Origin: an uncultured Eubacteriales bacterium
GTDB taxonomy: Bacteria > Bacillota > JAAYKD01
NCBI GenBank assembly: GCA_964425745.1
Contig: CAYRNW010000012.1
Coordinates: 250-64,249 of the forward strand
Length of the DNA stretch: 64,000 nucleotides
Direction of reading: 5' to 3'
Below, piece after piece: positions 1 through 20,179 of the stretch. The notes beneath the pieces are model-generated. The model made no database searches. It saw nothing but the letters and a program-made list of their open reading frames with translations, and was not told where the DNA came from. A program made the position numbers and the translations under genes. Numbering within the stretch: the stretch's first letter is position 1; each line of letters opens with the position of its first letter.

Positions 1-3000
1 CTTCTAAAAGTCCCATCGTTTCTTAACGTTGGTGGAGAAAGCCAAGCAATAGTCGCAATATATTGATCTGTTTCATTCACTGTAGAATCTGGTGTGTTCT
101 TCCATGACGGAGCCGTTATTCCGCTAATTGCTGCAATGTCGATCGTCTGCAAGATTGTTGTCGTGGGACTGCTCAGAACGGCTGATCCTGGGGTGATTCC
201 GGCACTTGCAACAGGTGTTACTTGGAATCTAATGGTTTTTCCGCGTTCATTCGTTGTTAAGGTATAGGTTGTTGAAGTAGCTCCCGGTATTGCTTCATCA
301 TCAGCATACCATTGATATGAGGTGGCGCCTTCGCCATCTAAATCATCATCACTGTACTCATAACTGCCATCAAGACGTTGACCTACCCGTAAGGTTCCCG
401 AAATGCTTACATTGCTTGCCACCGGTGCGTGTTGTTCGGTTACGGTTAAAGTGGCAGTCTCAGTCGTCTGCAAAGTAGCATCATGAGTTATCGTGACTGG
501 TTGCCCATTATGCAAGGCCGCTGTTAAGGTAGAACCGTTCGCCGGGGAAGCATTGAAACCAATTGCGACACCGTCGATGAATTCCACTACCACTGTACTA
601 CCATCGTTATAGGTTTCCGTAATGACCAGACCAACTAATGATAAAATCTCAGTCATCTCTTTGTAAACCAGTTTACTTGGTTGTGTGGTTGCTTCAATTG
701 AAACCAGTTGCAATGCGACAGTTGCTGGGAACTCCGCTAAAAAGGTCACAGTATTGCCCGCTCCATTACCACTCCGTACCGTGTTCGAAATCGTTGAAGC
801 ACCAACAATACTAGGTCTAAACGGAGTCGCAGAAAATGCTGTTCCGTTCTTAGAAGTTAGGGTAATCGTTGCTGTGTAAGCCGTATCAGCAGCGTACTTT
901 CCGCCTGTTGTCAGAGCAGGACTCCAACTTAAGGATGATACTGTAAAGTTCGGATCAGAGGTTAACGTTTCCACATCCCCCGAATTCTCCGGCGTTGCAC
1001 CAACTACAGGAGTGGTCATGTTAACTGTCGCAGCTGAGAGCGCGGAGGTTGCAACAGGCAAGGATTCTGCACTACTTACAACAGACCCCGTCAAAGTACC
1101 ACGTTCTGCTACAGGAGTAACTTTGAAGAAAACTGTTTTACCGGCATTGGCAGCAGTTAACAAATAAGTCAAGTAGCTGCTACCGGCCCCAGAGGATACC
1201 GATACTGAATCGACAATCCATTCATAATACGTAGAATCCGTATCTACTTCATCGCCATTGACATCAGAATAAACATAGTAACCGGTGAGGGTTTCACCTT
1301 TGACAAGTTCACCTAATATACTTACATTGGTTGCTTTCGGTGGCGCTTCTACTGAGAGCGGAGCGGTTCCAATTGTTACATTGCTATCAGTATGTGTAAT
1401 GCTAACTTCGTAAAGGTGATTATCACCTGTTAAAGCGCTTCCATTCATTGGCGAAGTTTCGTATCCTGCTGGTGTTCCAGAAGCAAAACTAACTGTGGCT
1501 GTACTGCCATCGTTGTAAAGCTCAGTGAATTCTAAGCCAGACAAATCTAAGACATCATCGGACCCTTCGGTATAGCTGAGCTTCGTTGGCTGACTCAGTA
1601 TTGTTAGACTTGACACTTTCAAAGGTTCAGTAGCATCATAGTTTACGGTAAACTCAACCGTATTCCCTACTACACCAGTATCAGACACTGTTATGTCGGA
1701 TATTGAAGAGGAACCTGAAACAATCGGTGCAAAACTTGGCACAAAGGTTTTCATGTTCTTGGATTCCATGGTTACCGTAGCAGAGTAGCTTGTATCAGTG
1801 TTAAATTTTCCTAAAGGTGTCATGGGTTCGTTCCAGACCACATTGGTAACCACAAAATCAACCGAGGAATTCACCCCTTCAACTTGAGAAGTAGTCTGTG
1901 GTGTAGCTCCTACCACAGGAGCAACCATACTGATGACAGGAGACTCGATCAGTCCAATCACAACTGTATCGGTTTGAGCTGAGACCTGACCGGTATACGC
2001 TCCGCTTCCAGTTGCAATGACTTTCATATAGTAATTGTATTGATTCGGTTGAAGCGCATACGAGGACGAAGTAGCTCCCGGAATATCGGCATAAACTCCA
2101 TCTGCTGCGGTGAAAACTTGCCACTGGTAGGTTGCCGTTGCTCCTTCAGGCAAGAGGTTTGCTGCCGTAAGTGTTTCTCCTACCTGAATGATGCCACCAA
2201 TATCGACATGGGTCAGCGCGGTCGGTGACAAAGTGACTGGACCGGTATAATTACTCATGATTGTACCGGAATAGCTTTCCGAGCCAGTGACCTCCACCTT
2301 GAAATAGTAATCTTCTGCTTCACTATCAGCAAAGGTGTAGGCATTTGATGTAGCTCCTTCAATAGCAGTATACTCTCCTGTTGGAATTGTTGTGTTCGAC
2401 TTATACCACTGATAGGTCACCTCTGCACCGAGCGGCGTTACAACACCCGCTGTTAACGTAATATTTGAAGCCTTAGTAGTATAAAGAATATCAGAAATCG
2501 CTAAAATTGGAATGGCTTCCCCAAAACCTACAACCGGTCCTTTCACACTTGATGTCACAGTTCCTGAATAAGAACCACTCCCTGTAGCAACAACCTTGAA
2601 ATACATACCTAAGTCGCTTTCTTGAACCATATATTGATTGTTGGTAGCTCCGGCTATGTTTTCAAAAGTATCTTGTGGATTCATTGCTCTTTGCCACTGA
2701 TATGTTACAGTTGCTCCTAATGGCAATACAGTCCCTGCAGTTAAGGTTTGCCCAGGTGACGTAGTTCCTTGGATAGCGCCAATGGAAGTTAAAGGGTTCA
2801 CCGGCTCTTCCTCAAGAATGTAGCCAATTGTTTTTTGTTGGCTACCACTATAAGCCCCTGTTCCGGTAATGGTTACACGAATTTGACGGTTTACGGTTTT
2901 CCAATTCAATAAACCAAGTTTTTCTGGAATTAAAACTGAATTCGTTGTAATTCCTGTATCTGTCCAACCAAGAATCGCAATATTAATCTCCCATTTGTAG

Positions 3001-6000
3001 GACACTGTGGCATCTGCCGGGATGGGAACACCAGCAACAAGAGATTGGCCGATTCTAAGTGAACCGCTCCACTCACCAATTCCTGTAATGATGCATGGCT
3101 GTATTGGTCCCTGAACTCCACTATAGACTTCTTTTGAATATGCTCCTGCACCTACCGCTTTTACACGGATATATTGTAAATAATCATCAACAGTCAAAGT
3201 GTATGATGTTTCAGTAGCTCCTGGAATATCTTGGAATGGCCCATCCTCCTCAACTCCGCGTTGCCATTGAATCGTTGCCTGTGCACCAGCGGGTGACAGA
3301 GTGTCCTTATTAACTGTTAATGGAGAATTGACTCTCAGGGTTCCAGTAAATGCGCCAATCGAAGTCAGCTCTATTGCAGAACTCTCAACCACCGGTCCAA
3401 CTGAATCACTAAGCCGCGAACCAGTATAAGCTCCAACGCCTGTTACCTGTACTTTGAAAGAGCAATTCAAATCATCCTCTGTTAGGGTAATAGCAGCTTT
3501 GGTAGCACCTGACACTTCAACAAAGTCGGTGCCTGAAGTATTAGATTTCAGCCATTGATAATTCACTGTTGCGCCTAGCGGAATTACTGTACCTGCATGC
3601 AAGGATTGACTGACTACAGTTGTTCCAACAATGGAAGAGATCGAGGATAAATTGCTTGGCTGAATCTGTGATGTAGGTGCACTTTCGACCCAACCTGTAT
3701 ACCCACCTGACCCTGTTGCAACAACTTTTAAAATTGAATTGTAATCTGAAGCTTGAAGCAAATAGGTTTTTGAAGTTGCACCTGGAATTTCACTATAGGT
3801 TTCTGCACCCGGCGATTTTCTTAACCACTGATAGGTTATTGAAGCCCCATATGGAGTTGTATTACCCGCGGTTAACAAACTTCCGACTCTTGTACTTCCA
3901 GTAATATCGGCGATAGCAACAACTTTATAAGGTGACGAATTAATCTCCCCAAATTTCTGACTCGTAGCACCCCCACTATAAGCAGACCCAGATGCTGCTG
4001 AGACTATTACATCGATAAAATGATCCTGATCATCCTCTGTTGTCGTATAATAATAGCTATTTGCATCATCTATTGTTTCAATTTGCCAGCCTAACAAAGG
4101 ACTATATTTATGTCTTCTCCATTGGTACGTGACGTTTGCTCCTTCAGGAACAACGGGTCCACTCGTAACAGTTCCACCAACATTGGTGCTACCTGTGATG
4201 TTGCCAACCGAAACAATGCTTTGACGGCCGGTGACCAAGAGATTTGACCCCGTCTTCGTATCAGTATAAATTCCCGTTCCGGTGACGACAGGGCGAACAT
4301 AAAAGTTATAATCGGCTGCTGTCAACGTGTAAGTCGAGGAAGTGGCTCCCGGTATATTCGTGTAATTCGTCCCAGCAGAATCGGATCTTTGCCACTGAAC
4401 AGTATAGGTCGCTGCTCCTGGATCCACTGATCCAATCGTCAAATTCTGACCGACCGTGGCAGTTCCGGTCGTGTTTGTAATCGAGTTCAGTGCAATTAGA
4501 GTTGTTCCACTGGCAGAGATGATGTTGGTGGCAGGGCTCTCGTACGAACCTTCATACGACCCTGTGCCTGTAACAACCAAGCGAATTGTTTTTCCTTCAT
4601 CTGTGGTCGTTAAAAGGTAGCTATTCAATGTGGCACTAGGGATATCTTGGAATCCGCTGCCATCGTTGCGTTGCCACTGATAACTCACAGAGGCCCCTAC
4701 GGGTGTAATGCTTCCCGCCACCAATGTTTGGTTGACAATGGTTTGACCTTGAGGTGCTAAAACCTGGCTAATGATTCCTTTAGAGATGAAATCCGTAGGG
4801 CTACTGATGACTTCACCAAAATACGTTCCAAACCCTGTTGCAATAACTTTCATGTATTTGGCTTGGTCATTTTCAGTTAACGTATACTGGCTGTATGTGG
4901 CTCCAACAATTGCCTCGTAAGTGCCATCTACTTCTGCCGATCGTAGCCACTGGTAAGAAATCGTAGAACCATGAGGTAATACCACCCCAGCGGATAAGGT
5001 TTGTCCTACTCGAGTCACACCGGTGATATCGCTAATGGAAGAGATGGCGTTGGGGCTTCCAACCGGACCGGTGTTGTTGCTATATAAGGTGTCAGAATAA
5101 CCATTTTTGCCGGTAACAGAAACACGAATAAATCGATTGTTCACATCGGTTGAAATCATATAGGTATTGGATGTTTCACCAACAATATTCACGTAGGTTG
5201 TTCCGTTATAGTATTGCCATTGGTAATTCACTTCCGCCCCAACCGGTAAAACAGTGCCTGCCGTGAGAACCTGGCCTACCTGTGCTTTACCAATCACATT
5301 AGATATGGACGTAATGGGTCTCGTTACAATAGGACCAAATGGAGGACTCGATACACCCCCTATATTAGTGTAATACGTTCCTGCTCCATATACTGTTAGA
5401 ATTAAGTGCTTGTTTAAGTCTTGATAAGTAGTTGTATACGATGAAGTGGTTGCTCCACTTATTGAAGTATACGGTCCAACAGCGAAATCCGCACGCTTCC
5501 ACTGATAGGTTACGGTTGCACCAATGGGGTTTGTCACTCCTGCTTGTATAGTTTGACCAATTTGTGGGTACCCGTTTATAGCCCCAATCGCTGTCACTTC
5601 TACGGGTTGTGCCAGAACTGGGCCGGAGAATGTGCTTAGTCGGATCCCACTGTATAAATTTGTTCCTGTGACTTGAACTTTTATAAATCTCCCAATATCG
5701 TCATTGCTGACTACATAGATATCTGATGTTGCACCGGCAATGGGTAAGTAATTCTCTCCGTTGGTATCTGAGATCAGCCACTGATATATCACAGTGGCAT
5801 CTGCTGGGGTCACAGCCCCGGCTGTTAAGACAGAAGTCACGGAAGCGGTACCACTAATCGTACCAATGGCAGTAAGGGGAGCCGTTGCAATCGGCCCAGC
5901 AAATCGACTAGTAACGGAACCCGTATAGGATCCGGAACCGGTAGCAATCACTTTAAAGAAATAACCTTTATCTGCCCCGGTGAGCACCAACGTTTTTGCA

Positions 6001-7742: not shown

Positions 7743-7808
7743 ACATCCTACCTCCCGACGTCAGCACACATTTAGCTTGAATGCATAAATTTCTATAGGC
7801 GGAACAAT

Positions 7809-7912
7809 AAAAAAACCGACCGCATTCCTGCGGTCGGACGGTCATCACTTCAACAGTGTTCAGACTCCAGACTTTGCGTCCTACTCTTTCAAGTAGTTTG
7901 CCAATAAACATC
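7809..7912 (-). ncRNA. c-di-GMP-I (GEMM) riboswitch with overlapping intrinsic terminator
   Basis: Minus strand reads GGCAAACTACTT-GAAA-GAGTAG-GACGCAAAGTCTGGAGTCTGA...ATGACCGTCCGACCGCA-GGAA-TGCGGTCGG-T7. It has the GGCAAAC, GAAA tetraloop, GACGCAAA and tetraloop-receptor motifs of class I. Confidence 0.9.
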
Positions 7913-7939
7913 ATAATTTGTCAAATTTAATCTGCCGAT

Positions 7940-7968
7940 ATTGTAACTTCTATTCAGACATATGTCAA
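7940..7968 (-). promoter_or_regulatory. Sigma-A promoter for giant protein B
   Basis: TTGACA (7968-7963), 17 nt spacer, TACAAT (7945-7940), directly upstream of the riboswitch. Confidence 0.8.
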
Positions 7969-8002: not shown

Positions 8003-8035
8003 AAAAAGCCATCTCTTGATTTGAGATGACTTTTT
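8003..8035. terminator. Intrinsic terminator after giant protein A
   Basis: AAAAAGCCATCTC...GAGATGACTTTTT hairpin with A/T tracts on both sides, 14 nt past the stop at 8049. Confidence 0.75.
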
Positions 8036-11000: not shown

Positions 11001-14000
11001 TTGCTCCCCTGCCGGGGTATATTCTCCAACTCTTGTTATGGGCCTTTTCCCAATCTGAGCGGTGGCATTTGATCTGAATACTCCACCAAAATTCCCGGTA
11101 CCAGCAATCTCGACCTTAATATACTTTAGATAATCTTCTACCGTTGTATAATATGTAGAAGCTGTAGCTCCGGGTATGGGGATATAAGTACCCCCAGAGG
11201 TATTTGATCTATACCATTGGTACGTCACAGTTGCTCCGCTTGGCGAGACCGACGTGGCGTTCAACGTCCGATTCACTTGGAATCGATTTCCGGATTCGGT
11301 TATCACCACATTCGTAACACTCGTCAGAGGGGTGTCTATCACTGGACCAATAGCACTACTTGTGATGGTGCCGGTATAGAAACCCGTTCCTTCTACCTTC
11401 ACTTTGATATAAGAAGTTAGATCCTCGGTTGTTAAGGTATACGTTTCTGTATTGGCTCCATCAATGGCTGAATAACTACCTTCCAGAGTCGAAGCTCTCA
11501 TCCATGTATAGGTTGCAGTTGCCGATACAGGGGTAATCGCTCCCGCCGTTACAACTGAGCCAACCGTTCTACTCCCACTTATAGAAGACAACGCAGCTAA
11601 AGCTCCCTTACCGATGAGTGAAGTCGGTTCACTCTCGGCCCAGCCATAATACCCTCCCGAACCTGTAATTACGACCTTTAAATAATGGTTAAAATCTTGA
11701 TCCGTCAAACGATACGTTGAAGCAGTCGCACCTAAGATTGCTGAATACGTCTCGGCATTGGCTGCGCGACGATACCATTGATATGTTACCGAAGCACCAA
11801 AAGGAGTGGTTGTTCCTGCGCTCAATAAGTTGCTTACGGTTGGATCTCCTACGATAGGACTAATCGCCGTGATTTTGCTTGGGTCTTCTTTCAGGGGACC
11901 GAAGAAATAACTATCGACTGAACCAGTGAATCCTTTCGATTCATCCCCACTGACTCTGACTTTGTAATAATATTTCTCTTGACCTGTAGGAGTTGTGAAC
12001 TCGTCTGGAAATTTGTAATAATAGTCTGTTGCTCCGGTTATATCGTAAAAGGTAGCTGTTAATGGAGTTCTAGAACTGGTATACATCCACTGATAGGTAA
12101 CAGCGGCACCAGCAGGAGTTACTTCTCCGGCGAGCACTAACTCACTTAGAGCCGGTGTACCAATAATGTTTGCAACAGCTGTTATGGTTTGCATTCCCGT
12201 TACTAGCCTGCCTGTTACGGTTACGACACCTGTATAAGCTCCTGTTCCGGTTACCACGGGTCGAACGTACTTCTCAAAGTCATTTGCTGTTAAAACGTAG
12301 GAAGTATTAATGGCACCGCTGATGTTGCTAAAGTTGATATTATCTTCCGATCGTTGCCATTGAACACTATAGGTTGCACCGCTCGGTCCTACGGTACCGA
12401 TTGTAACCGTATCCCCTACCGATAAGGTTCCACTTGGAGTGAATCCTCCCATGGTGATCGTTTGCGGGACTGTACCACTGGGTTGAATCGCAAGAGTTGG
12501 TTGACTTTCAGCGGTTCCTTCATAGGAGCCGGTTCCGGTCACAAATAACTTAATTGTTTTCCCTAAATCATCTTCCGTCAGTAAATAACTACTCAGCGTT
12601 GCTCCGGGAATGTTGGTATAAGAAACCCCATCACTGCTTCGCTTCCATTGATATGTTACCGTGGCACCCACCGGAAGAATCCCACCGGAAGAAAGGGGTT
12701 GACCAACAATTGTTTGTCCCAAAATATTGCCCACAGAATCCACGGTTCCCAACATGATTTTATCGGTTGCATTACTTCTGACTTCATCGTAATACAACCC
12801 AAATCCGGTTGCTATAACTCTCATGTACTTGTTGTGGTCTGCACCGGTCAATGTATACGTCTTTTGAGTAGCTCCCGAAATCGCCTCGTAAGTACCATCG
12901 ATTTCTCCCGAACGTAACCATTGATAAGAAACCGTTGCTCCATAGGGGAAGACGACCCCGGCGGTTAAGATTTGACCCACTTGGGTTATACCGGTGATAT
13001 CACCTATGCCTTGAATCAAATTAGGATCTCCGGTTACGACCGGTCCTGTACTAATACTCGAAACGGTGTCAAAATAACCCTGATTACCCGTGACTGAAAC
13101 TTTGATACTCTTACCAAGATCAGCAGAGGTTATGATATATGTATTTGAAGTCTCTCCAACAATACTCGTATTATCGCTATACTTCCATTGATACGAAACA
13201 TTTGCACCGATTGGAAGTACTGTTCCTGCGGTTAACACTTGGCCCACTTGCGTCTTACCGATGACATTCGATATAGATTCGAGTGGTCGAGCCAGAACAG
13301 GACCAAAGAAAGCACTCGTAATTCCGCTTGGGGGGGTTGCATAAACTCCGGATCCCCAAACCGTCACTTTAAAGTACTTGTTTAAGTCCGCTGCTGTTGT
13401 GGTGTAAGTAGCTGAATTCGCACCACTAATTGCTGTATACGGTCCTCCGCTTACGTCGGCTCGTGACCATTGGTAGGTTACTGTTGCACCTAAAGGTGTC
13501 GTGTTTCCGGCTGTTAACATTTGACCCACTTGAGCGGTTCCACTAATAGTACCTACTGCAGTGATATTGGTAGGGGTAAGAACCACCGGACCAGAATATT
13601 GGCTTGTGACAGTTCCACTGTATAAATTGATTCCCGTGGCTTGAACTTTAATGAATAAACCGATGTCCGTCTCTGTCACTTGATACGTATTCGAATTTGC
13701 TCCTGCAATCGGGATATAGTTTTCACCATTGATATCTGATCGTAACCACTGGAAGTTCACAGTTGCTCCCGAAGGTAATACGGTGCCAGCAGTCAGAAGC
13801 TGACCGTTCGTTGCTGTTCCACTAATATTGCTAATGGACATCAAAGGAGCCGCAGTAATCGGTCCGGCATATCTACTTGTGACGGATCCGGTATATAATC
13901 CTGAACCTGTAGCGGTAACTTTGAAGTAAAATCCTTTGTCTGCTCCTGTTAGTACCAATGTTTGAGAGGTTGCACCTGAAATAGGTAAGTATATCCCATC

Positions 14001-15695
14001 CATCGAACTACTCTTCAACCATTGATATGTTACAGTTGCACCATAAGGGGAAACCGTTCCTGCTGTCAAAGTTTGAAATACCTGAGTTAAGCCAATACTA
14101 TCTGCAATTGAAGATAGATGGGTAAGTGTAGTCCCAGCGGCTGAGGGAACAATGTATTGACTTAGCACTGTACCATTATAAGCACCGGTTCCGATTGCTG
14201 CCACACGAATATAGGTATTGACATCGGAAGCACTCAAGGTATAGGTACTACTATTTGCTCCAATAACGGTGTATGATCCACTAGGATTCGTCGTGCTATA
14301 TCTTCTCCACTGATAATCTACCGTCGCTCCACTCGGTAAAACGGTACCGGCTGTTACAACTTGCCCTTGTATTGCGGAACCACTAATATTTCCAATGGAT
14401 TGTAATGGCATAGCAGCCACAGGTCCGAGAGCATTGCTGTCTAACGTGCCGGTGTAAGATCCGGAACCCGTCACAGTAACTCTAAGATGCTTTCCAAAAT
14501 AACTAGCTGCTATGGTATAGGTATTACCGGTTGCACCAGATATTATGTTCCATGGAGCACTTCCGTTATCGGAAAAATACCATTGATACGAGGCAGTTGC
14601 TCCACTAGGAGCAAGCGCTTCTACCGTAAGAGTCTGTCCTACTTGTGCCGTGCCGGTTATCGTTACAGGTGCCGTTAGAGAAATACCTGCTGTTACTACC
14701 GGTCCACTTCGTACCGAAGTGACCGTTCCAGAATAATCCCCGGTTCCGGTAGCAACGACTCGTACATATCGGTTTAGGTCTTCTGGATTCACTGGCACAT
14801 AGGTGGAACTCGTTGCACCTTCAATGTTGCTAAAAATACTACCACTGGTATCGGATCGTTGCCACTGATAGGTCACCTCTGCTCCTGAGGGAGTCAAAGG
14901 TCCCGCAGTTAAAGTATTCCCAATGGTGGTGGTTCCAACAATGGGGTCAAGATCGGTGATTTGAATTTTATCGCTGATAATAGGACCCATGCTGGCAAAT
15001 TCAGTTCCACTATAGGTGTTTGACCCGGTTGCATAGACACGCACAAATTTATCGATCATGGATTCGGTTAACAAGAGCGTGATATTGGTCGCTCCACTTA
15101 TATTGACGTAAGTCCCATTGAGAGTATCGGCAATCTTCCATTGGTAGGTAGCGGTGGCACCGGTGGGAAGCAAGCTGCCCGCAGTGACCGTTTGTCCTAC
15201 TACCGCATTGCCCTGGATAGCACCCATGGACTCCAAATCTATGGCGGCAACGACAACCGGGCCAACTGTAGAACTGTAAACAGTGCCGGAATACTCTCCG
15301 GTTCCTTTGACTGCGACTCGAATGTAATGATTATTGTTCTCAATATCCAAGTAGAACGTTTCTAACGTCGCATCAGGAATATCAATAAATTCTCCCTCCA
15401 GAGAATTGGCTCGTTGCCACTGTATCGTATAAGTGGATTCTTCATCCGTTACTACAGTGGCAGTCAATGTCTCATACTGGCGGGTTGTGCCTAATATGCT
15501 AATCTCCGCAACAAGTTCTTGTGCAAAATCAGCGGAGAAGAATGTCAAATCTGCCCCAACCGAATCCAAAACATATTTCGACAAAGAGGGACTGGAAGCA
15601 ACAAAAGAAACGATGAGTACAGTAGAAGTAAGCAGAAGCCCTAAAGCTCTGCCAAGTTTTGAAGAATGGTTGATCACCGTTCTACGTAACCTCAT
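8049..15695 (-). CDS. Giant secreted Ig-like repeat protein A (putative adhesin), 2548 aa
   Basis: SD AAGGAGG then ATG; hydrophobic signal ending SLS|KY. Twenty ~90-aa repeats (G-x-L-T-A-G...P-x-G-A-T-V-x-Y-Q-W...I-x-G-A-T...Y...D...Y-x-x-V...G-T-G-x-Y-x-G) resemble AIR9/A9-type Ig folds. Then 2x [APVLGATP domain + bacterial Ig group-3-like domain + AIR9-like domain]. No C-terminal LPXTG, SLH or TM segment. Confidence 0.92.
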   Translation of the reverse strand: MRLRRTVINHSSKLGRALGLLLTSTVLIVSFVASSPSLSKYVLDSVGADLTFFSADFAQELVAEISILGTTRQYETLTATVVTDEESTYTIQWQRANSLEGEFIDIPDATLETFYLDIENNNHYIRVAVKGTGEYSGTVYSSTVGPVVVAAIDLESMGAIQGNAVVGQTVTAGSLLPTGATATYQWKIADTLNGTYVNISGATNITLLLTESMIDKFVRVYATGSNTYSGTEFASMGPIISDKIQITDLDPIVGTTTIGNTLTAGPLTPSGAEVTYQWQRSDTSGSIFSNIEGATSSTYVPVNPEDLNRYVRVVATGTGDYSGTVTSVRSGPVVTAGISLTAPVTITGTAQVGQTLTVEALAPSGATASYQWYFSDNGSAPWNIISGATGNTYTIAASYFGKHLRVTVTGSGSYTGTLDSNALGPVAAMPLQSIGNISGSAIQGQVVTAGTVLPSGATVDYQWRRYSTTNPSGSYTVIGANSSTYTLSASDVNTYIRVAAIGTGAYNGTVLSQYIVPSAAGTTLTHLSSIADSIGLTQVFQTLTAGTVSPYGATVTYQWLKSSSMDGIYLPISGATSQTLVLTGADKGFYFKVTATGSGLYTGSVTSRYAGPITAAPLMSISNISGTATNGQLLTAGTVLPSGATVNFQWLRSDINGENYIPIAGANSNTYQVTETDIGLFIKVQATGINLYSGTVTSQYSGPVVLTPTNITAVGTISGTAQVGQMLTAGNTTPLGATVTYQWSRADVSGGPYTAISGANSATYTTTAADLNKYFKVTVWGSGVYATPPSGITSAFFGPVLARPLESISNVIGKTQVGQVLTAGTVLPIGANVSYQWKYSDNTSIVGETSNTYIITSADLGKSIKVSVTGNQGYFDTVSSISTGPVVTGDPNLIQGIGDITGITQVGQILTAGVVFPYGATVSYQWLRSGEIDGTYEAISGATQKTYTLTGADHNKYMRVIATGFGLYYDEVRSNATDKIMLGTVDSVGNILGQTIVGQPLSSGGILPVGATVTYQWKRSSDGVSYTNIPGATLSSYLLTEDDLGKTIKLFVTGTGSYEGTAESQPTLAIQPSGTVPQTITMGGFTPSGTLSVGDTVTIGTVGPSGATYSVQWQRSEDNINFSNISGAINTSYVLTANDFEKYVRPVVTGTGAYTGVVTVTGRLVTGMQTITAVANIIGTPALSELVLAGEVTPAGAAVTYQWMYTSSRTPLTATFYDITGATDYYYKFPDEFTTPTGQEKYYYKVRVSGDESKGFTGSVDSYFFGPLKEDPSKITAISPIVGDPTVSNLLSAGTTTPFGASVTYQWYRRAANAETYSAILGATASTYRLTDQDFNHYLKVVITGSGGYYGWAESEPTSLIGKGALAALSSISGSRTVGSVVTAGAITPVSATATYTWMRASTLEGSYSAIDGANTETYTLTTEDLTSYIKVKVEGTGFYTGTITSSAIGPVIDTPLTSVTNVVITESGNRFQVNRTLNATSVSPSGATVTYQWYRSNTSGGTYIPIPGATASTYYTTVEDYLKYIKVEIAGTGNFGGVFRSNATAQIGKRPITRVGEYTPAGEQSVNQSLVAFSIDPAEATVTYQWEISQGGGGGGGWNNIGVSTQSVLIPDRQPGNNASTVGRDIRVIITGTGAYTGTLGTTGTTVDIVAYSSLETLEAMGSIVGTSAVGQTLTAGAITPSGASAFVDYQWQRSLTPSGTFQNIAGATTNSYTIPAGDLNYYLRVVATGTGNYSGVLTSASTGPVISSGSFIQIASISDILYTTVPQLTLTAGTVSPMGATVTYQWKVASSLGGTYSNISGATSSVYTIPVNQALGSYFKVEVTGSGSYSGTALSNATGPVVVTPEELTSVQVSGINKVGETLSAVNLTAENLWPGDTYPTATYQWQVFTGPGGVFADIPGATGSTYTLQPAQYNYYVRVIATGSGAYTGSKFADTTSKIIGLLSSAQVTMASPVLGATPQTAAQVQSTTNHPDYEVTGLVWNEALTPLGKFKAGTAYTATVTLTSKNTKIFVSTPFTPMVASAASVGTTTTSGSDVGNTVSFTATFAPTGALMPTSISVTTQPTKLVYVETTDGVLALDGMVVTETNNDGTITTTIFTDGTAAGYTASPEDGSTLTGAQHDSSVTITHTASGKTATTANLFVEAPPSASNVTITGTAAANSALTGNYSYYDVNGDAEDTDTTYYEWFIDSVSVSAGAGSSYLSYTLTAADIGKTVLLEVTPAAASGSSTGAAVTSTTTLPVATNTITSASVNIVAPVLGTTPDTLENVETQTANDDYTVTGLTWNEALTAAGKFKADTVYTATVTLTSKNDSTFQWTFFTPTVTTASSVGTTTTSGLGIGNTVTFTVSFPQTGALAVDSLSIQAPPSDMSYVEMTDATLSLNGLVVTATHNDGSQIQVPFTDGVAAGYTADPAHGTVLTNADHDGQPITITHTDSSKTATTSNLAVQAQVAPVASSVSISGTAQVGQPLNGSYEYYDANSDSQGTSTFKWYADAVEIPSATTTTYVVQAGDVGKVIRFEVTPFAATGLTPGNPVQSDPTEAVVPN

Positions 15696-15745: not shown

Positions 15746-16261
15746 CTAATCGATTTGTTCCGCGTTAATGGTAATACGAATGGTCTGAGTTTTATTTGCA
15801 TATTCACTTCCTGTTTCTAATTCGTTCCAAACGATATTGAGCGTGTAGCTGTGAGTGATGTTTTCACCCATTCCTAAAATTGTCCAACCGTCTCCATCAG
15901 AAGGATACGATCCTACTAAGTTCTTAGTTAATGGTAGCACGTTTTCTGGCTCAACACTCACTTCAATCTTATATCTCAACAGAACCTCGTTCCTTATCTC
16001 GATCAAGTCCTCATTCTTAAAGTTACGAATTTGAAATTGATAAGCTACGGCATCCCCCGGCTTCACATTTTCAAAAGAAAGGCTTTCTTGCTGTAACCCA
16101 TTATACGTAGCTATCCCCGGAACATACTCCAGTACAGGCTTTGCAACCCTAGCCGTATCGGTTCCGTCGACTATGGTTCCATATTTCGAAAAGGATACGC
16201 CTGTCACCACGAGAGTGACAATAATTAGATAGACTAAATATAAAGGTAGCATTCGCCTCAT
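15746..16261 (-). CDS. SipW-cognate exported protein, TasA/camelysin-like minor subunit (putative)
   Basis: Signal ...VTGVSFS|KYGTIVDGTDTARVAK shares GTDTARVAK exactly with 18407..19234. It has VKPGD-x-x-x-Y-x-F and a C-terminal IRITINAEQ strand, and lies next to sipW. Confidence 0.75.
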   Translation of the reverse strand: MRRMLPLYLVYLIIVTLVVTGVSFSKYGTIVDGTDTARVAKPVLEYVPGIATYNGLQQESLSFENVKPGDAVAYQFQIRNFKNEDLIEIRNEVLLRYKIEVSVEPENVLPLTKNLVGSYPSDGDGWTILGMGENITHSYTLNIVWNELETGSEYANKTQTIRITINAEQID

Positions 16262-16285
16262 TTATCACAACCACATTTCTATTGC

Positions 16286-16789
16286 TTAAGAGTTTGATTT
16301 TCGTTTGTTGAGAAGATTGGGGACTTCCACCAGTGCAATCGCCGTTAGGGCAATCAATAGCAACCCGAAGGGAGTCTTCAAAAATAGTATAAAATTACCA
16401 AATCCCGGTATGGTGAAAACCACTTTCCCGTTAATTAGAGCTAATGGTGTTGGCTCATCGGTCGTATTGTTAGCATCGCCCTTGGTAATCATCTGGTCTC
16501 CTTCTATGGAAACGATACGATGTGTACAAAGACTGTTACCCCATTCATAGGTGACGATGTCACTGACCTGGTATTGGTTTTGCTCACGGATGATCAGCAA
16601 ATCACCTGCTGAAATCGTCGGTTCCATGCTTCCGGAGATGACAATGACTTGGCCGAATCCAAAAATGGTGGGCAACTCTTGTTTGAAAACTAACTGCATA
16701 GTAAGTAGATAAAGGTTACCGATCAAGATTATCGCAAGCATAGCTACTACAATTTTCTGACCGATACTTAAGATTTTATTCAAATTCAT
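16286..16789 (-). CDS. sipW: Signal peptidase I, SipW (S26B, ER-type)
   Basis: ISGSMEP (catalytic Ser), THRIV (His general base rather than Lys), TKGDANN; N- and C-terminal TM segments. Confidence 0.92.
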   Translation of the reverse strand: MNLNKILSIGQKIVVAMLAIILIGNLYLLTMQLVFKQELPTIFGFGQVIVISGSMEPTISAGDLLIIREQNQYQVSDIVTYEWGNSLCTHRIVSIEGDQMITKGDANNTTDEPTPLALINGKVVFTIPGFGNFILFLKTPFGLLLIALTAIALVEVPNLLNKRKSNS

Positions 16790-16804
16790 CGCATTCCTTA
16801 CCCG

Positions 16805-18265
16805 TTATTGTCCCGTAATCAAGATTTCTAAAATATACATGGGCGGATCGATTTGATTGCCTATGGCGGTATCGAGGGTGTTATTGGAAGCATCCCACTC
16901 CCACTCCAAGGTATAATACACCGAAGAGCTACGGGGTAATTGTGCAAACTCTACGATCTCAGATGCGGTTCTCCAAGCATTCCCACCTACATAATCATCG
17001 CCCACGATTCCTCGTTTTAATCGGTAAATCATGGGAATATTGGGCACGTTTGCATCGGAATCCTGAAGATCTATGGTGATATCTACATCAAACATTTGCG
17101 GATTACGGATTTTGAAAATAAATTTCCCATTGGATCCTGGAGCAATGACATTCTTTCCGTCAATACTCTGAACACCGTTGTTTCCTGCTCTCGGTGCAAA
17201 GATATCGACCGAGGTTACTTTCTGCCAAGTGCGACCGATCATGGTGTAATCATCGGAAACATAAATCCGAGGAGTCGTATCTTCTGGTGGATCCGGAGGT
17301 GGAGGCGGAGGTGGAGGCGGAGGGGGCGGATCAACTGGATCCGTTGGATTTGTTGGATCAGTGGGGTCTTCCGGATCTGTCGGGTCGGTTGGATCCGTTG
17401 GGTCCGTAGGATCTGTAGGATTGGTTGGATCTTCTGGTTCAATGGAACCACCTGGATTATCTGGATCGACCGGATCTTCAGGCTCTACAGGTTCTTCCGG
17501 ATCTGTCGGGTCCGTTGGATTGGTAGGATCAGTGGGGTCGGTCGGGTCTTCAGGTTCAATGGAGCCCCCAGGTTGATCCGGATCGTCTGGGTCTGCAGGG
17601 TTTACAGGATCCGTTGGACTAGTAGGTGTTTCAAAATCATTATCGAAGTCAAACTTGATAACTAAATCATCTCTGTTCTCTTCCCCTATACTAGTTCCGT
17701 TTTCTCTATTTGGGTCGATTTCTAAAATCACATTCAGAACTTGGACCTCTAAGGGGATTCGAATTAAATAACCACCGGCATCGAGCTTAATAATTTGTTT
17801 TACATTAATGAAGGCATCGAGAAGGAAGTTCACTTTGGTTGTTGCAAGAACAACACCATCGCTCACAACGCTAATCGTATGACTACCTTCTTCAACATCT
17901 AAAAATTCGAAACGACCAAGGGAGTCTGTTTCGGTGTAGCGAGGTTCACTACGCAACTCAATTGTGCCGTTGGCATAAGGTGTTCCATCTGTATATTGAA
18001 CGATTCCCACAACGTTAATCTGATAAATCGGCGTTGGATCTGGGGTTACCGTAGGTTGGCCAAAGTCAATGGTGATGGTATCGATAATCTGACCGGTGTA
18101 GTAGTCTCTATAGACGATTCGTCCGATTAAGTAACCAATCATGGAGGAGGTTAACATTAAAGAGAAAACGAGTAAGAGGATGAATCTGCGAAGCCTTCTG
18201 CGACGAATCTGTCCTGTCGTCTCTTCGGCTTCTTCATAGAGCGCTTCTTCCCAAAAAAACCTCAT
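16805..18265 (-). CDS. Membrane-anchored protein: N-terminal TM, carboxypeptidase-regulatory/prealbumin-like domain, Pro/Asp/Thr stalk, C-terminal TasA-like domain
   Basis: RRRRLRR followed by a TM helix; GxVxYTDGTP..RYTETDxxGxFxFxxVxxGxHxI motif; PTD repeats; C-terminal NVIAPGSNGKFIF, YTLEWEW and DTAIG match motifs of the 18407..19234 protein. Confidence 0.75.
   Translation of the reverse strand: MRFFWEEALYEEAEETTGQIRRRRLRRFILLLVFSLMLTSSMIGYLIGRIVYRDYYTGQIIDTITIDFGQPTVTPDPTPIYQINVVGIVQYTDGTPYANGTIELRSEPRYTETDSLGRFEFLDVEEGSHTISVVSDGVVLATTKVNFLLDAFINVKQIIKLDAGGYLIRIPLEVQVLNVILEIDPNRENGTSIGEENRDDLVIKFDFDNDFETPTSPTDPVNPADPDDPDQPGGSIEPEDPTDPTDPTNPTDPTDPEEPVEPEDPVDPDNPGGSIEPEDPTNPTDPTDPTDPTDPTDPEDPTDPTNPTDPVDPPPPPPPPPPPPDPPEDTTPRIYVSDDYTMIGRTWQKVTSVDIFAPRAGNNGVQSIDGKNVIAPGSNGKFIFKIRNPQMFDVDITIDLQDSDANVPNIPMIYRLKRGIVGDDYVGGNAWRTASEIVEFAQLPRSSSVYYTLEWEWDASNNTLDTAIGNQIDPPMYILEILITGQ
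17294..17630 (-). repeat. Imperfect 9-bp (Pro-Thr-Asp) tandem repeats, two GGSIEPEDPT modules and a 12-Pro run within the anchor gene
   Basis: Repeating gga-tc/ggg-tc units are visible in the DNA; the 12 consecutive Pro codons lie at 17294-17329. Confidence 0.9.
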
Positions 18266-18303
18266 ACAGATTCACCTCTCTTCTCGTGCCTTATGTAGAA
18301 TGA

Positions 18304-18339
18304 AACCCCGGCAGCTGGTTATAAACCTTTGCCGGGGTT
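18304..18339 (-). terminator. Intergenic stem-loop after the major subunit gene (partial terminator or mRNA stabiliser)
   Basis: 10-bp stem AACCCCGGCA/TGCCGGGGTT with only a short U tract on the minus strand. Confidence 0.55.
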
Positions 18340-18406
18340 ATTTGTTCCAGCTTCTTAATAACTCACCTGCATAGGGCTCGTTATAGGGGAGCTTAGTTTT
18401 GTTTAG

Positions 18407-19234
18407 TTAGTTGATTTGAGTAGCGGTGATTCGTAAATTCAAGGTCAATGACGGTGCATCATCAGTTAGGAACAAATCTCCCAAATCAGTATCTGCTTTG
18501 TCATAAGCAGCCAACTTAATTGTAGAATGTGGTACAACTACAGTCGCTGCAGAATCAGAATAGTATGTAGTTGCTGGGTTGTAAGGATTAGTGGCCAAAG
18601 TGGCTGGAGCAGTATAATACATAGCCACATTTGCTTTTGCAACTTCAACTTCTGACCAAGCTAAATATGTGCTGGACCATTCAAAAGGCCATTCCCAACC
18701 AATCGTGTAAGTTGTAGCAATCGATGCGTTAGCAATATAATCAACAGTTAATGAACTTAATTCTGATTCTAAGTCTGCCAAAGTGAAATATGTTTTCGCT
18801 CCCCATGCTGAACCAGTCCAGTAATTAGTCCCATTATAAATAGTCCAATTGAGCGGTTCATAAGCCTTAGTTGATACGAGCCAGTTATCCTTTATAGAGG
18901 AAGCTCCAAAAGAAACTCTTACGGCTACTTCAGGAATACCAGCTAAAGTAAAGGTATAACTCCCAGAAGTTCCTGGGGCTACTACATTCTCTGTTGATAT
19001 CACGGAATTTGGACCAAGCATGAAGGTTGCATCATCCTTGACATAAGTTAAGTCAAACATACCATCACCAGCAGAGTCAGCAGTAATGGTCACTCCCCAC
19101 TTCGCCACTCTGGCAGTATCTGTTCCGGTTGCTTCCGTCACATACTTAGCATAAGTGCTGGAAACCATAGGCATCGTCACTAAGGTCAATACCATAGCGA
19201 GTAAGCCTAATCTTAAAACCCAATTTTTTTTCAT
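18407..19234 (-). CDS. SipW-cognate exported protein, TasA/camelysin-like major fibre subunit (putative)
   Basis: SD GGAGGT then ATG at 19234 (ORF track starts at 19249). Signal ...VSSTYA|KYVTEATGTDTARVAKW resembles TasA TWA|AF and CalY TFA|FF. NVVAPGTSGSYTF, YTIGWEW and terminal LRITATQ motifs; directly follows sipW. Confidence 0.8.
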   Translation of the reverse strand: MKKNWVLRLGLLAMVLTLVTMPMVSSTYAKYVTEATGTDTARVAKWGVTITADSAGDGMFDLTYVKDDATFMLGPNSVISTENVVAPGTSGSYTFTLAGIPEVAVRVSFGASSIKDNWLVSTKAYEPLNWTIYNGTNYWTGSAWGAKTYFTLADLESELSSLTVDYIANASIATTYTIGWEWPFEWSSTYLAWSEVEVAKANVAMYYTAPATLATNPYNPATTYYSDSAATVVVPHSTIKLAAYDKADTDLGDLFLTDDAPSLTLNLRITATQIN

Positions 19235-19302
19235 TTTTCTTACCTCCATCTAATTTTTCTATTTGGAGACCGAATTATCGGTCAAATCCCCATGTGTCTT
19301 GT

Positions 19303-19950
19303 TTATTCTTGTTTGGTTGAATCTTCTTTGATAGAATTAGCTTCCAATTGTTGGCGCATGCTTTCCAATTCGGCTTCCAGTTCTTTTGTGCGTTGGGCCT
19401 TCTTGCGTTCAAACAGGGTTCGTCTCAAAATGTCATAAAGGATGAATGATAACAAGGGTAATGCGATGAAGAGTGCCATGCCGACCGGGGTTTGCATAAA
19501 CATGGCAAAGTTGCCCAGTTTTGAGATACGATATAAGTAGACACCTTCGAGTTGTTCTACTGTTACCGGTCTGCGGTCGTTCACGTTGTTGTTATCACCT
19601 TTGGTGATGAAGCGAAGTTCTTGATCTGCTCCCTCAACTTGAACGATTCTGTGTGTAATCACTGCGGTGCCTTCTCTGAATGCAATCACATCGCCGACCT
19701 GAAGGCTATCTGCCTCTACCTCCTTCACCATGACTAAATCGCCTGAATAAAATACCGGTTCCATGGACCCTGTTAAGACAATGAAGGGTTTGTAGCCCAT
19801 GAAGCTGGGCACTTCCTCCGGGTAGAGAAACGACTTTACGATGAGAGTAATGTTTACAACTAAGGCAGGGATGAGAATGATGCAGAGGATGATCCCGAAG
19901 ATGGTTCCGATTCCCACCCTGCTCTTCTTATTGCTCTCCGTTTCACTCAC
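19303..19950 (-). CDS. sipW: Signal peptidase I, SipW (S26B), with C-terminal coiled coil
   Basis: LTGSMEP, ITHRIV, TKGDNN; TM segments; tail KELEAELESMRQQLE. GTG at 19950 follows SD GGGGG (ORF track uses TTG at 19971). Confidence 0.9.
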   Translation of the reverse strand: MSETESNKKSRVGIGTIFGIILCIILIPALVVNITLIVKSFLYPEEVPSFMGYKPFIVLTGSMEPVFYSGDLVMVKEVEADSLQVGDVIAFREGTAVITHRIVQVEGADQELRFITKGDNNNVNDRRPVTVEQLEGVYLYRISKLGNFAMFMQTPVGMALFIALPLLSFILYDILRRTLFERKKAQRTKELEAELESMRQQLEANSIKEDSTKQE

Positions 19951-20001
19951 ATATAAAACCCCCTGTTCCAAAGTTTGTTTTGAATACTCCGGCAGCTAAT
20001 T

Positions 20002-20112
20002 AAAAAAAGTCCGACCGCAAGAAGATTGCGGTCGGACGATCATGACACAATTTTGTGCTTTAGATTCCAGACTTTGCGTCCTATTTTTTCAAATAGTTTG
20101 CCAAAAGTTAAA
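20002..20112 (-). ncRNA. c-di-GMP-I riboswitch with overlapping terminator, upstream of the sipW operon
   Basis: Minus strand reads GGCAAACTATTT-GAAA-AAATAG-GACGCAAAGTCTGGAATCTAA...ATGATCGTCCGACCGCAA-TCTTC-TTGCGGTCGGAC-T7; nearly identical to the copy at 7809. Confidence 0.9.
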
Positions 20113-20150
20113 TTCAATTTTGATTCTATGACGTTTAGTTCCTTACTGAG

Positions 20151-20179
20151 ATTGTATATCAGTTGAGAATAAAAGTCAA
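20151..20179 (-). promoter_or_regulatory. Sigma-A promoter for the sipW operon
   Basis: TTGACT, 17 nt spacer, TACAAT. Confidence 0.7.

Follow-up and report, generated by a model that had tools for sequence, protein, structure and literature searches.

Does a gene cluster that encodes two SipW-type signal peptidases, three small related proteins and two giant Ig-repeat proteins specify a single surface fibre? The cluster is located in a 64,000-nt stretch of DNA from an uncultured Eubacteriales bacterium, the whole of which is referred to here as the window. The original prediction was of a c-di-GMP-induced, polar fibre, with a membrane base, shaft subunits and the giant proteins as tip adhesins. 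The gene cluster is intact, and the sequence features on which that prediction was built are real: the riboswitches, both sipW genes, the 275-, 171- and 486-aa proteins, both giants and the KY-type signals. As a whole the earlier interpretation is partly supported. With some reserve, we lean towards two c-di-GMP-induced units whose products would be two giant Ig-repeat adhesins and, through SipW, a surface fibre of the TasA/BsaA superfamily.

Results

Gene organization and regulation

The minus strand carries all parts, and their order is the one originally described, from a riboswitch and sipW1 through to the gene for giant 2. The first unit begins with a sigma-70-like promoter (TTGACT-17-TACAAT, 20151-20179, 10/12 matches) located 39 nt 5' of a c-di-GMP-I riboswitch aptamer (20024-20112), which matches the full RF01051 model (1-87) with 63.4 bits; the gathering score is 35 bits. 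A terminator-like hairpin 3' of giant 1 (CATCTC..GAGATG plus a T-run, 8008-8032; palindrome 8010-8028) precedes the second unit, which has the best promoter of the region (TTGACA-17-TACAAT, 7940-7968, 11/12 matches) and a second aptamer (7826-7912; RF01051, 61.5 bits). Aptamer 1 scores 94.5 bits with model R1, and aptamer 2 scores 84 bits.

In both units a promoter is followed by a c-di-GMP-I aptamer, which competes with an intrinsic terminator for GTCCGACC. Expression platform 1 (20000-20037) is a 12-bp terminator hairpin (20009-20037) with a T-run, and the 5' arm of the terminator, GTCCGACCGCAA, is also the 3' end of aptamer 1. Without ligand, the minimum-energy fold (-36.6 kcal/mol, z -5.2) contains the terminator. 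Expression platform 2 (7808-7837) has a 9-bp terminator, CCGACCGCA/TGCGGTCGG (hairpin 7816-7837), with a T-run, and overlaps the 3' end of aptamer 2. From these overlaps we infer that both riboswitches are ON switches, in agreement with the induction by c-di-GMP that had been proposed: bound c-di-GMP would keep the aptamer closed, block the terminator and allow transcriptional read-through. Riboswitches of the c-di-GMP-I class are also found directly 5' of operon genes in 12 other loci.

Signal peptidases and subunit candidates

The sipW1 gene (19303-19971) encodes an ER/archaeal-type signal peptidase I with a charged C-terminal tail (TIGR02228, 2.7e-32; SipW model NF046067, 7e-29) and the motifs GSMEP, THRIV and KGDNN. 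Its ribosome-binding site indicates that translation probably starts at GTG 19950 rather than TTG 19971. The sipW2 gene (16286-16789) encodes a second SipW-type signal peptidase of 167 aa (TIGR02228, 1.3e-21). Both products retain the Ser, His and Asp motifs and are of the SipW/archaeal type, as originally predicted. Reading of the sequences places the end of the signal in four exported proteins at small-x-[AS] before KY (TYA/KY, SFS/KY, SLS/KY and TAS/KY), a type that resembles the SipW-cognate class, GT[WFY]A followed by x-aromatic.

The major subunit candidate is encoded by a 280-aa ORF (18407-19249). Its homologs use MKKNW as the start, which corresponds to 275 aa from 19234, and its signal ends with ...SSTYA before KYVTEATGTDTARVAKWGV. 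None of its 2137 homolog clusters has a Pfam domain. Invariant positions are K35, Y36, A46, R47, A49, G52, V53, APGT, E107, W185, W187, D253, T254 and Q278, and AlphaFold2 predicts a beta-sandwich (pLDDT 81). The signal of the minor subunit candidate (171 aa, 15746-16261) ends with ...GVSFS before KYGTIVDGTDTARVAKPV; AlphaFold2 modelled the mature protein at pLDDT 86.5, with residues 1-8 below 50. The donor segment of BsaA is likewise a low-confidence N-terminus in monomer models (PMC11580942). The N-terminal segment is extremely conserved and common to the major and minor classes. The monomer models give ARVAK of this putative donor segment a fairly high pLDDT (88 and 74), and ARVAK may therefore be part of the subunit's own fold.

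Core motifs are common to these two proteins and the 486-aa protein (NVVAPGTSG, NVIAPGSNG and NVKPGD; YTIGWEW, YTLEWEW and YTLNIVW), as are C-terminal strand motifs (ITATQIN, ILITGQ and INAEQID). BLASTP aligned the 280-aa protein with the 171-aa protein at E 3e-7 and with the C-terminus of the 486-aa protein at E 4e-4, and hhalign gave 99.5% (E 2.5e-22) for the major against the middle class and 99.1% (E 1e-18) for the major against the minor class. By sequence comparison, the similarity of the three small proteins (275/280, 171 and 486 aa) is beyond chance and identifies them as paralogs, confirming the shared subunit-like core.

The anchored paralog and the operon family

The 486-aa protein (16805-18265) consists, from N- to C-terminus, of a basic cytoplasmic N-terminus, one membrane helix, a CarboxypepD_reg-like domain, a Pro/Thr/Asp-rich linker of ~130 aa and a subunit-like domain (residues ~335-486) that lacks the KY..ARVAK segment. 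In 46 of 66 relatives, this middle paralog bears an LPXTG-type sorting signal, xPxTG(D) followed by a hydrophobic segment and basic tail (two examples score above the TIGR01167 curated cut-off), and in a further 8 it has a membrane segment at the C-terminus. In the window and loci L001, L081 and L083, a membrane helix at the N-terminus and a PT linker take the place of the sorting signal. The middle paralog is envelope-tethered in nearly every relative, which, together with the absence of KY..ARVAK, supports a base role; the comparative support for the proposed fibre base is strong. The description of the system as sortase-independent holds for the window but not for the family. No pilus-specific sortase was found within the operon, and a TLxTC motif is located within 10 kb of the operon in only 7 of 80 loci.

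A search of gene neighbourhoods in other Clostridia, as originally suggested, found the cassette of sipW1, major subunit, anchored paralog, sipW2, minor subunit(s) and large protein in 67 of 80 fetched genomes, so that at least 67 other genomes harbor it. Relatives of the major subunit are encoded at 553 genome loci. The order is fixed across the cassette genomes, with two separate SipW groups: sipW1 orthologs form one group across the 80 loci, and sipW2, always 3' of the anchored paralog, forms the other. Judged from genome sequences, the operon family is widespread in anaerobic Clostridia and is so far uncharacterised.

The giant proteins

Giant 1 (2548 aa, 8049-15695) has a leader ending in ...SSPSLS before KYVLDSVGADLTFFS, and giant 2 (1-7742), with a leader ending in ...SSPTAS before KYVLDTIQTELSFVS, extends from a GTG start at 7742 for 2580 codons to the window edge. 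They are 53% identical over 2546 aa. Each contains ~20 repeats of ~93 aa (Pfam IG_AIR9, 1e-58 and 2e-56); those of giant 1 are of the A9-type Ig class, and its C-terminal region is composed of two ~330-aa modules. Neither an LPXTG motif, a C-terminal membrane segment nor a recognised wall-binding module was found in the giants; lacking an anchor of recognised type, they would need another means of attachment if they act as adhesins.

L081 and L083 encode one giant each, orthologous to giant 1, with a near-identical leader and a diverged remainder; conservation is far higher in the leader and the ~16 residues that open the mature protein than in the rest. Among 1.84 billion representatives, the KY-type leader of the giants occurs in only one other 50%-identity cluster. 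In most related operons the large protein carries an ordinary signal peptide, and its conserved C-terminus is a different one. Attachment to a tip through the KY leader, which is confined to a small clade, can therefore not be general in the family. The claim that the giants are fibre tips goes beyond its basis, a leader in common and a short beta-like N-terminal peptide.

Relation to TasA and BsaA

A Foldseek search with the 171-aa model placed donor-strand pilins on top (FimF, FimG, CfaB, PapA and PapK) and matched the TasA fibre 8aur with a probability of 0.99, the highest TMq of the list (0.47) and E 0.016, and AbpA 7ueg with a probability of 0.87 and TMq 0.40. No Foldseek match had E 1e-3 or better, and TasA was not among the top 50 matches of the 280-aa model. 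The models weakly support a TasA-like fold of the small proteins.

In hhalign comparisons with a TasA profile, 72% (E 3.5e-5) was reached only by a merged minor and tail profile, whose alignment runs collinearly from the signal through to the ATQ-type strand at the C-terminus; with the major class, the signal peptide alone aligned. The window proteins had no matches to Pfam PF12389, TIGR04088 or TIGR04090. Tail paralogs of related operons match the BsaA model TIGR04090 (6.6e-12 and 7.3e-8), and profile-profile comparison gives 94.5% for their homology with the minor class. Sequence homology of the small proteins to TasA is likewise weakly supported. Fold search, profile comparison and the BsaA-model matches of the paralogs consistently point to a link with TasA/BsaA, albeit a remote one.

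Discussion

A fibre could be assembled from these parts as follows. SipW would cleave before KY and free the conserved N-terminal segment KYVT..GTDTARVAK, which would insert into the following subunit as its donor strand, in the manner of TasA and BsaA. The 275-aa protein would form the shaft, and the 171-aa protein may be an adaptor or initiator. The 486-aa protein, with an acceptor domain but no donor segment at the tip of a wall-spanning PT-rich linker, would be the fixed, cell-proximal end. Most speculatively, the short KYVLD..[DE]L[ST]F peptide of the giants could plug a subunit groove and cap the distal end.

The giants need not be joined to the fibre. TasA and BsaA form matrix fibres (PMC9674648, PMC11580942), and the locus might specify a biofilm-matrix scaffold, not a polar pilus, with fibres partly cell-bound via the anchored paralog and giants that are independent, SipW-processed adhesins having only promoter logic and signal type in common with the fibre. 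This is a serious possibility, though clearly less probable than the favoured reading. It accommodates the separate promoter, riboswitch and terminator of giant 2, the single giant in L081 and L083 and the ordinary signals of large proteins in most operons, and KY may be a mere P1'-P2' preference of the SipWs. It leaves unexplained how giants without a recognised anchor are retained and why their leader and adjoining residues are so much more conserved than the remainder.

That there is no fibre is improbable. The small Ig-like proteins would then be present at the surface as monomers or oligomers, or would help the large adhesins in export, folding or wall passage in a chaperone-like way, with the SipWs as dedicated processing enzymes. 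A large surface protein is located 3' of the cassette in 43 loci, the E-values of the fold search are weak, and TasA operons also encode chaperone-like partners, TapA and B. cereus CapP (PMC10151520; 10.1101/2024.02.27.582368). However, a multi-subunit polymer fits better because there are up to five paralogs with a pilin-like fold per operon, one of them is anchored to the wall, major and minor classes share an extremely conserved N-terminal segment, and paralogs match the BsaA model. It is very unlikely that the proteins belong to the neighbouring type IV pilus (T4P) machinery, as its substrates or components, in pseudopilus-type secretion. Immediately upstream, both in the window and in L081 and L083, lie a T4P cluster (pilC, pilM, pilN/O-like, pilB and pilT) and an AraC regulator, and T4P-dependent secretion of Bsa proteins was reported in C. 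perfringens (PMC11580942). Yet none of the proteins has a prepilin (G/F..E) signal, T4P genes were not found beside the operon in the other 80 loci, and in the window three T4P genes (pilM, pilN-like and pilB) are disrupted and a fourth, pilC, is broken into two ORFs, whereas the sipW operon is intact.

The favoured fibre has partial counterparts among known systems. Chaperone-usher pili (Fim, Pap and CFA/I), which provided the top Foldseek matches, are donor-strand polymers of several subunits that bear an adhesin at the tip, an architecture proposed here from genes and models. They are Gram-negative and depend on a chaperone in the periplasm and an usher in the outer membrane, neither of which is present in the window, and their tip adhesin acts only as a strand acceptor, contrary to the proposal for the giants. 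SpaA-type sortase pili follow the same overall logic of envelope-anchored base, shaft, minor subunits and large adhesin, and LPXTG is present on the base paralog in most relatives of the window operon. Unlike SpaA-type pili, the shaft and minor subunits lack LPXTG and pilin motifs, the operon has no pilus-specific sortase, and subunit linkage is presumably non-covalent strand exchange. Leaders with c-di-GMP ON riboswitches precede large adhesin or pilus genes in Bacillota, including B. thuringiensis Bc2-cap and C. difficile CD2831/CD3246 and pilA1, whose products are sortase-anchored or type IV pilins; to our knowledge none is tied to a SipW/TasA-like cassette. The B. subtilis tapA-sipW-tasA operon is regulated by SinR/Spo0A, not by a riboswitch.

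The window has in common with that operon (8aur; PMC9674648, PMC10151520) a dedicated SipW, a signal of the GT[WFY]A type and a subunit of jelly-roll or Ig-like fold, for which TasA gave the best TM-score. The PGD...N.G and C-terminal ATQ motifs are also collinear in the two, although Pfam PF12389 is unmatched. Accessory TapA donates a strand to TasA (PMC9674648, PMC10151520), whereas the anchored protein here appears acceptor-only, so the polarity would be opposite. The archaeal AbpA/AbpB bundling pili (7ueg; PMC9245690) also show TasA-superfamily kinship by profile or structure only, AbpA forms a donor-strand filament, and a TapA-like partner encoded in the operon is proposed to bear adhesin-like distal domains; unlike the window, they lack a dedicated signal peptidase, giant adhesins and a riboswitch.

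Among the closest systems is the sipW-bsaA-bsaB-bsaC operon of C. perfringens (Obana 2020, PMC7395162; Kivimaki 2025 preprint, PMC11580942). The window differs in having two SipW paralogs, proteins below the BsaA/TasA models, a KY..ARVAK N-terminus in which the BsaA N-E-K isopeptide triad is not evident, a membrane-anchored base with a PT linker, c-di-GMP riboswitch control, and ~250-kDa Ig-repeat partners with the same leader in place of the VWA protein BsaC. Both are clostridial operons with sipW first and T4P genes nearby, and tail paralogs of the present family match TIGR04090. BsaA polymerises as a TasA-like subunit whose N-terminal donor segment is free; the counterpart here is putative, from genes and models. 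The bsa oligomers are cell-bound, and a paralog that carries LPXTG in many strains is proposed as anchor, the role suggested here for the 486-aa protein. The statement that no such system had been described was too strong, since heteropolymers from multi-paralog operons were already proposed for C. perfringens bsa (PMC11580942).

Results

All elements of the fibre cluster lie on the minus strand of the window. The first transcription unit encodes, in order, sipW1, a 280-aa ORF (the major subunit; 275 aa counted from MKKNW, the start common to all homologs), a 486-aa protein (the middle paralog), sipW2, a 171-aa protein (the minor subunit) and a 2548-aa protein (giant 1). The intergenic gaps are 15-141 nt, and a terminator hairpin with a T-run near 8020 (minus strand) closes the unit. 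Giant 2, a paralog of giant 1, forms a separate transcription unit on the same strand; it starts with GTG at 7742, and the window ends after 2580 of its codons. Giants 1 and 2 share 53% identity over 2546 residues. Both contain repeats of ~93 aa, about 20 per protein, with matches to Pfam IG_AIR9 (1e-58 and 2e-56).

Both peptidases exceed the cut-off of 51.85 bits for TIGR02228: sipW1 (19971-19303, minus strand) with 111.8 bits (2.7e-32) and sipW2 (minus strand) with 77.1 bits (1.3e-21). The GSMEP, THRIV and KGD(N/A)N motifs (Ser/His/Asp) are kept in both. By this match and these motifs, the products are identified as ER/archaeal-type signal peptidase I. Both resemble Bacillus SipW despite scores (100.7 and 60.9) that miss the Bacillus SipW equivalog cut-off of 190. 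The listed TTG start of sipW1 (19971) is probably too early and GTG 19950 is favoured; this GTG sits a normal distance 3' of an AGGGGG ribosome-binding site.

Each unit is preceded by a c-di-GMP-I aptamer on the coding (minus) strand, at 20112-20024 and 7912-7826. In a covariance-model search of the window with RF01051 they scored 63.4 and 61.5 bits, respectively, against a gathering score of 35, and both span model positions 1-87 of 87. The two best-scoring sigma-70-like promoters of the region, TTGACT-17-TACAAT (20179-20151, minus) and TTGACA-17-TACAAT (7968-7940, minus), lie directly 5' of the first and second aptamer, and intrinsic terminators follow at 20037-20009 and 7837-7816 (both minus). 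In both leaders the 5' arm of the terminator (GTCCGACCGCA) doubles as the 3' end of the aptamer, and the computed ligand-free fold of the first leader is the terminator (-36.6 kcal/mol, z -5.2). Bound c-di-GMP would sequester this arm and permit read-through. From this overlapping architecture we infer that both riboswitches are ON switches.

A covariance model built from seven aptamers placed coding-strand c-di-GMP-I riboswitches directly 5' of operon genes in twelve relatives (loci L001, L003, L005, L009, L031, L039, L044, L045, L063, L075, L081 and L083), with two in tandem in L001, three in L044 and two in L075. Control by c-di-GMP riboswitches is frequent in the operon family, not universal. 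Some relatives have tandem riboswitches, or separate ones before single genes such as those for the major subunit and the membrane base (L001 9265-9564; L044 208-300, 2149-2246 and 8771-8873; L075 7641-8353; L083 6838-6926). In L083 the riboswitch lies between sipW1 and the major subunit, not 5' of sipW1.

Directly 5' of the operon, also on the minus strand, the region 20331-26576 carries a gene for an AraC-type regulator (20331-21035) and an intact one for a PilT-like ATPase (21050-22102), alongside a type IV pilus cluster that appears decayed. Compared with the intact cluster of the close relative L081, pilB is spread over three frames, with residues ~259-319 unmatched; a frameshift interrupts the pilN-like gene, an in-frame stop near 24840 interrupts pilM, and pilC is broken into two ORFs. 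The giant genes, 15 kb in all, are intact. Three tRNA genes and a TPP riboswitch (68.3 bits) 5' of a 416-aa ORF, at 26944-27314 and 39622-39731, are unrelated to the fibre cluster.

The signal sequences of the four exported proteins end in TYA↓KY, SFS↓KY, SLS↓KY and TAS↓KY. These signals, like the riboswitches, gene order and repeats listed in the original prediction, were all confirmed. The three small proteins are paralogs, as judged by sequence comparison. BLASTP aligned the 280-aa protein with the 171-aa protein (E 3e-7) and with the C-terminus of the 486-aa protein (E 4e-4), and hhalign of family profiles built from related loci aligned the major class with the middle class (99.5%, E 2.5e-22, 191 columns) and with the minor class (99.1%, E 1e-18). 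The best-conserved stretch of the major family is the mature N-terminus, KYVT..GTDTARVAK, in which K35, Y36, A46, R47, A49, G52 and V53 are invariant among 38 sequences; K50, E107 and D253 are also invariant. This KY..ARVAK segment is almost identical in the 280-aa and 171-aa proteins, the remainder of which has diverged. The middle family lacks it and is alignable from the W..V..F strand on.

The operon family is widespread. For the major subunit, homology searching at E<=1e-3 gave 2137 clusters, none with a Pfam domain and every named one called hypothetical. When one genome per GTDB species was scanned, a relative of the major subunit was encoded at 553 loci, mostly in MAGs of Acutalibacteraceae, Oscillospiraceae, Ruminococcus, Lachnospiraceae and Christensenellaceae, plus one Coprobacillus; family members are mostly uncultured organisms from guts and digesters. 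A neighbourhood search, as proposed with the original prediction, showed that the cassette recurs in related clostridial loci. Among 80 fetched loci the order is fixed: sipW1, major subunit, middle paralog, sipW2, minor subunit, often a second minor subunit, a large protein (1100-2300 aa) and a tail protein (about 180 aa). The signals are T[FY]A↓KY in the major, [AS][KR][YF] in the minor and AKY in the second minor subunit. The minor, second-minor and tail classes are mutually homologous at 94-95% (hhalign); therefore, up to five paralogs of one fold are possible per operon. Across the same 80 loci, orthologs of sipW1 and sipW2 always score better against their own type, from which it follows that the pair is old and that the two paralogs are presumably functionally specialised.

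The tail protein, found 3' of the large protein in 29 loci in all (e.g., L007 10268-10795 and L041 17641-18207), has a signal of the type GVTLA[FY]MF[KR]xxE and the C-terminal motif VFAEAIQ. No tail-protein gene was seen in the window subclade. The large proteins of typical operons (e.g., L003 13667-17953, L007 3491-10264 and L041 12850-17637, among others) have ordinary signal peptides, Listeria-Bacteroides repeats and DUF7601/SpaA-like domains, and share a conserved C-terminus (..DWSWRY..WLNGNS..) without LPXTG. No subunit-like domain was found in the large proteins of related loci, whose C-termini scored 0.1-0.6% against all subunit classes in hhalign.

By sequence, the middle paralog is an envelope anchor. 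Of 66 loci, 46 encode a form whose C-terminus consists of xPxTG(D), a hydrophobic stretch and a basic tail, and eight more encode one with a C-terminal membrane segment; two examples score above the curated cut-off of TIGR01167, a model for LPXTG anchors. An inverted topology is found in the window, L001, L081 and L083: here a basic N-terminus is followed by a single membrane helix, a CarboxypepD_reg-like domain, ~130 aa of linker rich in Pro, Thr and Asp, and the subunit-like domain at the C-terminus. With LPXTG in most relatives and an N-terminal helix in the window subclade, the tether has therefore been swapped and the tethered domain kept. This exchange lends the strongest comparative support to the role of fibre base that had been proposed for the 486-aa protein. 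The accompanying proposal of sortase independence holds for the window subclade, but not for a family in which most middle paralogs are of LPXTG type. Overall, the original interpretation is supported in part. A 189-aa plus-strand ORF (17096-17665) with many Arg, Trp and Ile residues is antisense to the linker-encoding part of the 486-aa gene; it was rejected as a gene and is a shadow of the repetitive linker.

Direct sequence searches did not place the subunits in a curated family. No window protein matched PF12389 (TasA/CalY, Peptidase_M73) at E<=0.1, nor did any of 38 major-family members at E<=1; TIGR04088 and TIGR04090 (BsaA) had no HMMER-level match to any window protein, Pfam and NCBIfam searches of the window subunits returned nothing, and searches of PDB sequences with the 280-aa protein, the 171-aa protein and the A1 profile (the major-subunit family) gave nothing below E 0.3. 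AlphaFold2 predicted confident beta-sandwiches for the 280-aa protein (pLDDT 81) and the mature 171-aa protein (pLDDT 86.5, pTM 0.78). Foldseek with the full-length 280-aa model gave weak, mixed beta-sandwich matches with TasA not among the top 50, a search probably hurt by the signal helix and a low-confidence insertion (residues 190-265). The trimmed 171-aa model was more informative. It had no match below E 1e-3, and donor-strand pilins dominated its list: FimF (E 2.6e-3), FimG, CfaB, PapA, PapK and CupB6. The TasA fibre (8aur_A) matched with probability 0.99, E 0.016 and the highest TMq in the list (0.47), and archaeal AbpA (7ueg_A) with probability 0.87.

Profile comparison used a TasA query checked against 8aur (504 bits) and a TasA profile of 111 family members. 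The A1 profile aligned with the single TasA sequence in the signal peptide only. Against the TasA profile, the major class reached 62% through the signal peptide only and the minor class 33%, while a merged minor and tail profile reached 72% (E 3.5e-5) over 181 collinear columns, which begin at GGTWA↓AF, include PGD..N.G and end at the C-terminal ATQ-type strand. Tail paralogs matched the BsaA model TIGR04090 at 6.6e-12 and 7.3e-8, below its 60-bit cut-off, a match that reaches the window proteins transitively, via minor-tail homology. Taken together, the fold search, the merged profile and the tail-paralog matches suggest a place for the family on a remote branch of the TasA/BsaA superfamily, outside the curated families.

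Discussion

The results make an anchored, SipW-processed, TasA-like fibre likely. We infer from sequence and models that polymerisation would proceed by donor strand through the mature N-terminus. The first eight residues of the mature 171-aa protein are disordered in the AlphaFold2 monomer, as is the donor segment of BsaA in monomer models (PMC11580942). Both subunit models, however, place the ARVAK part with fair confidence, so that it may belong to the subunit's own fold.

Two other pilus types were considered. Type IV prepilins carry a class III signal (a short basic leader, G↓F, Glu5 and a hydrophobic helix), which was not found in the window's exported proteins; their signals are ordinary n-h-c signals ending small-x-small, which rules out a prepilin reading. 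A sortase-assembled pilus is ruled out by the sorting motifs: LPXTG is absent from the giants and, on reading the translations, from the small window proteins, and in relatives this signal is limited to the anchored paralog.

Attachment of the giants to the SipW-processed fibre by their N-terminal peptide is doubtful. No LPXTG motif was found in either giant, nor a C-terminal membrane segment in giant 1. From the cleavage site to the first Ig repeat are ~25 residues with a beta-like alternation, KYVLD....[DE]L[ST]F.S, and, read from the sequence, the mature N-terminus aligns with the subunit KYVT...G.D..... position by position. This leader is nearly unchanged in L081 and L083, where the proteins have diverged elsewhere. 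Such conservation would fit a donor peptide and a SipW recognition element equally well. A phmmer search of the 80 loci with the giant N-terminus found no subunit and no other giant. A search of 1.84 billion representatives found the leader in a single other 50% cluster, giving no support for a portable module on diverse cargo. Because the large proteins of most related operons have conventional signals and a conserved C-terminus of another kind (DWSWRY...WLNGNS), the leader is rare, and giant 2 is a separate unit, general tip attachment via the leader is disfavoured.

The close relatives L081 (1-18155) and L083 (1-18456), on JGI metagenome contigs, share the order type IV pilus cluster, AraC, sipW1, major subunit, membrane base, sipW2, minor subunit and giant. 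Each has one giant, followed by ftsH on the opposite strand; therefore, the riboswitch-led second giant is a duplication specific to the window lineage.

Overall, we lean modestly toward the view that the c-di-GMP-induced units build a SipW-dependent fibre of the TasA/BsaA superfamily together with two giant adhesins. A fuller scheme would add a third way of making Gram-positive pili to the sortase-assembled and type IV kinds. In it, the fibre would be a polar heteropolymer growing from its base, with an uncleaved signal peptide tethering each new subunit as that subunit's groove takes up the N-terminal strand just freed by SipW on the previous one. The SipW paralogs would share the labour, one serving the shaft and the other adaptor and cargo. 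An uncleavable, envelope-anchored, acceptor-only paralog would end growth and fix the fibre, the ~250-kDa adhesins, with a donor peptide only, would take the tip position by being secreted first, and c-di-GMP would gate the whole process. That all these steps hold jointly is improbable.

If the cassette does make anchored donor-strand fibres, these would be a major means of attachment for gut Clostridia and would take TasA/BsaA biology beyond a loose biofilm matrix, to an ordered appendage of several subunits on a defined base. The cassette is common, yet no member has a functional name or annotation. The fixed SipW pair offers a clean genetic handle on substrate specificity in this peptidase class. 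The window variant would add a TasA-like system under direct c-di-GMP control, a membrane anchor replacing the sortase signal, and giant adhesins with an acquired subunit-type leader.

A full-text literature search found no paper on a KY-type, dual-SipW cassette. The nearest described system is the sipW-bsaA-bsaB-bsaC operon of C. perfringens (PMC11580942). BsaA polymerises, with a modelled donor-strand exchange locked by an isopeptide bond, and its oligomers are cell-bound; a BsaB homolog with LPXTG was suggested as the anchor, and heteropolymers were suggested for operons that combine several paralogs with LPXTG proteins, signal peptidases and SpaA-domain proteins (PMC11580942). The intermolecular bond of the BsaA family involves an Asn-Glu-Lys triad; invariant residues of the major family that might play a comparable part are K35, K50, E107 and D253. 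TasA fibres and strand complementation by TapA have been described (PMC9674648, PMC10151520), and AbpA/AbpB pili are also known (PMC9245690). Sortase-assembled pili have LPXTG on shaft and tip and a pilus sortase in the locus, a combination that the window does not present. Compared with the described systems, the conserved dual peptidases, the exchangeable anchor and the riboswitch control are undescribed, as are, in the window subclade only, giant adhesins with a subunit-type leader.
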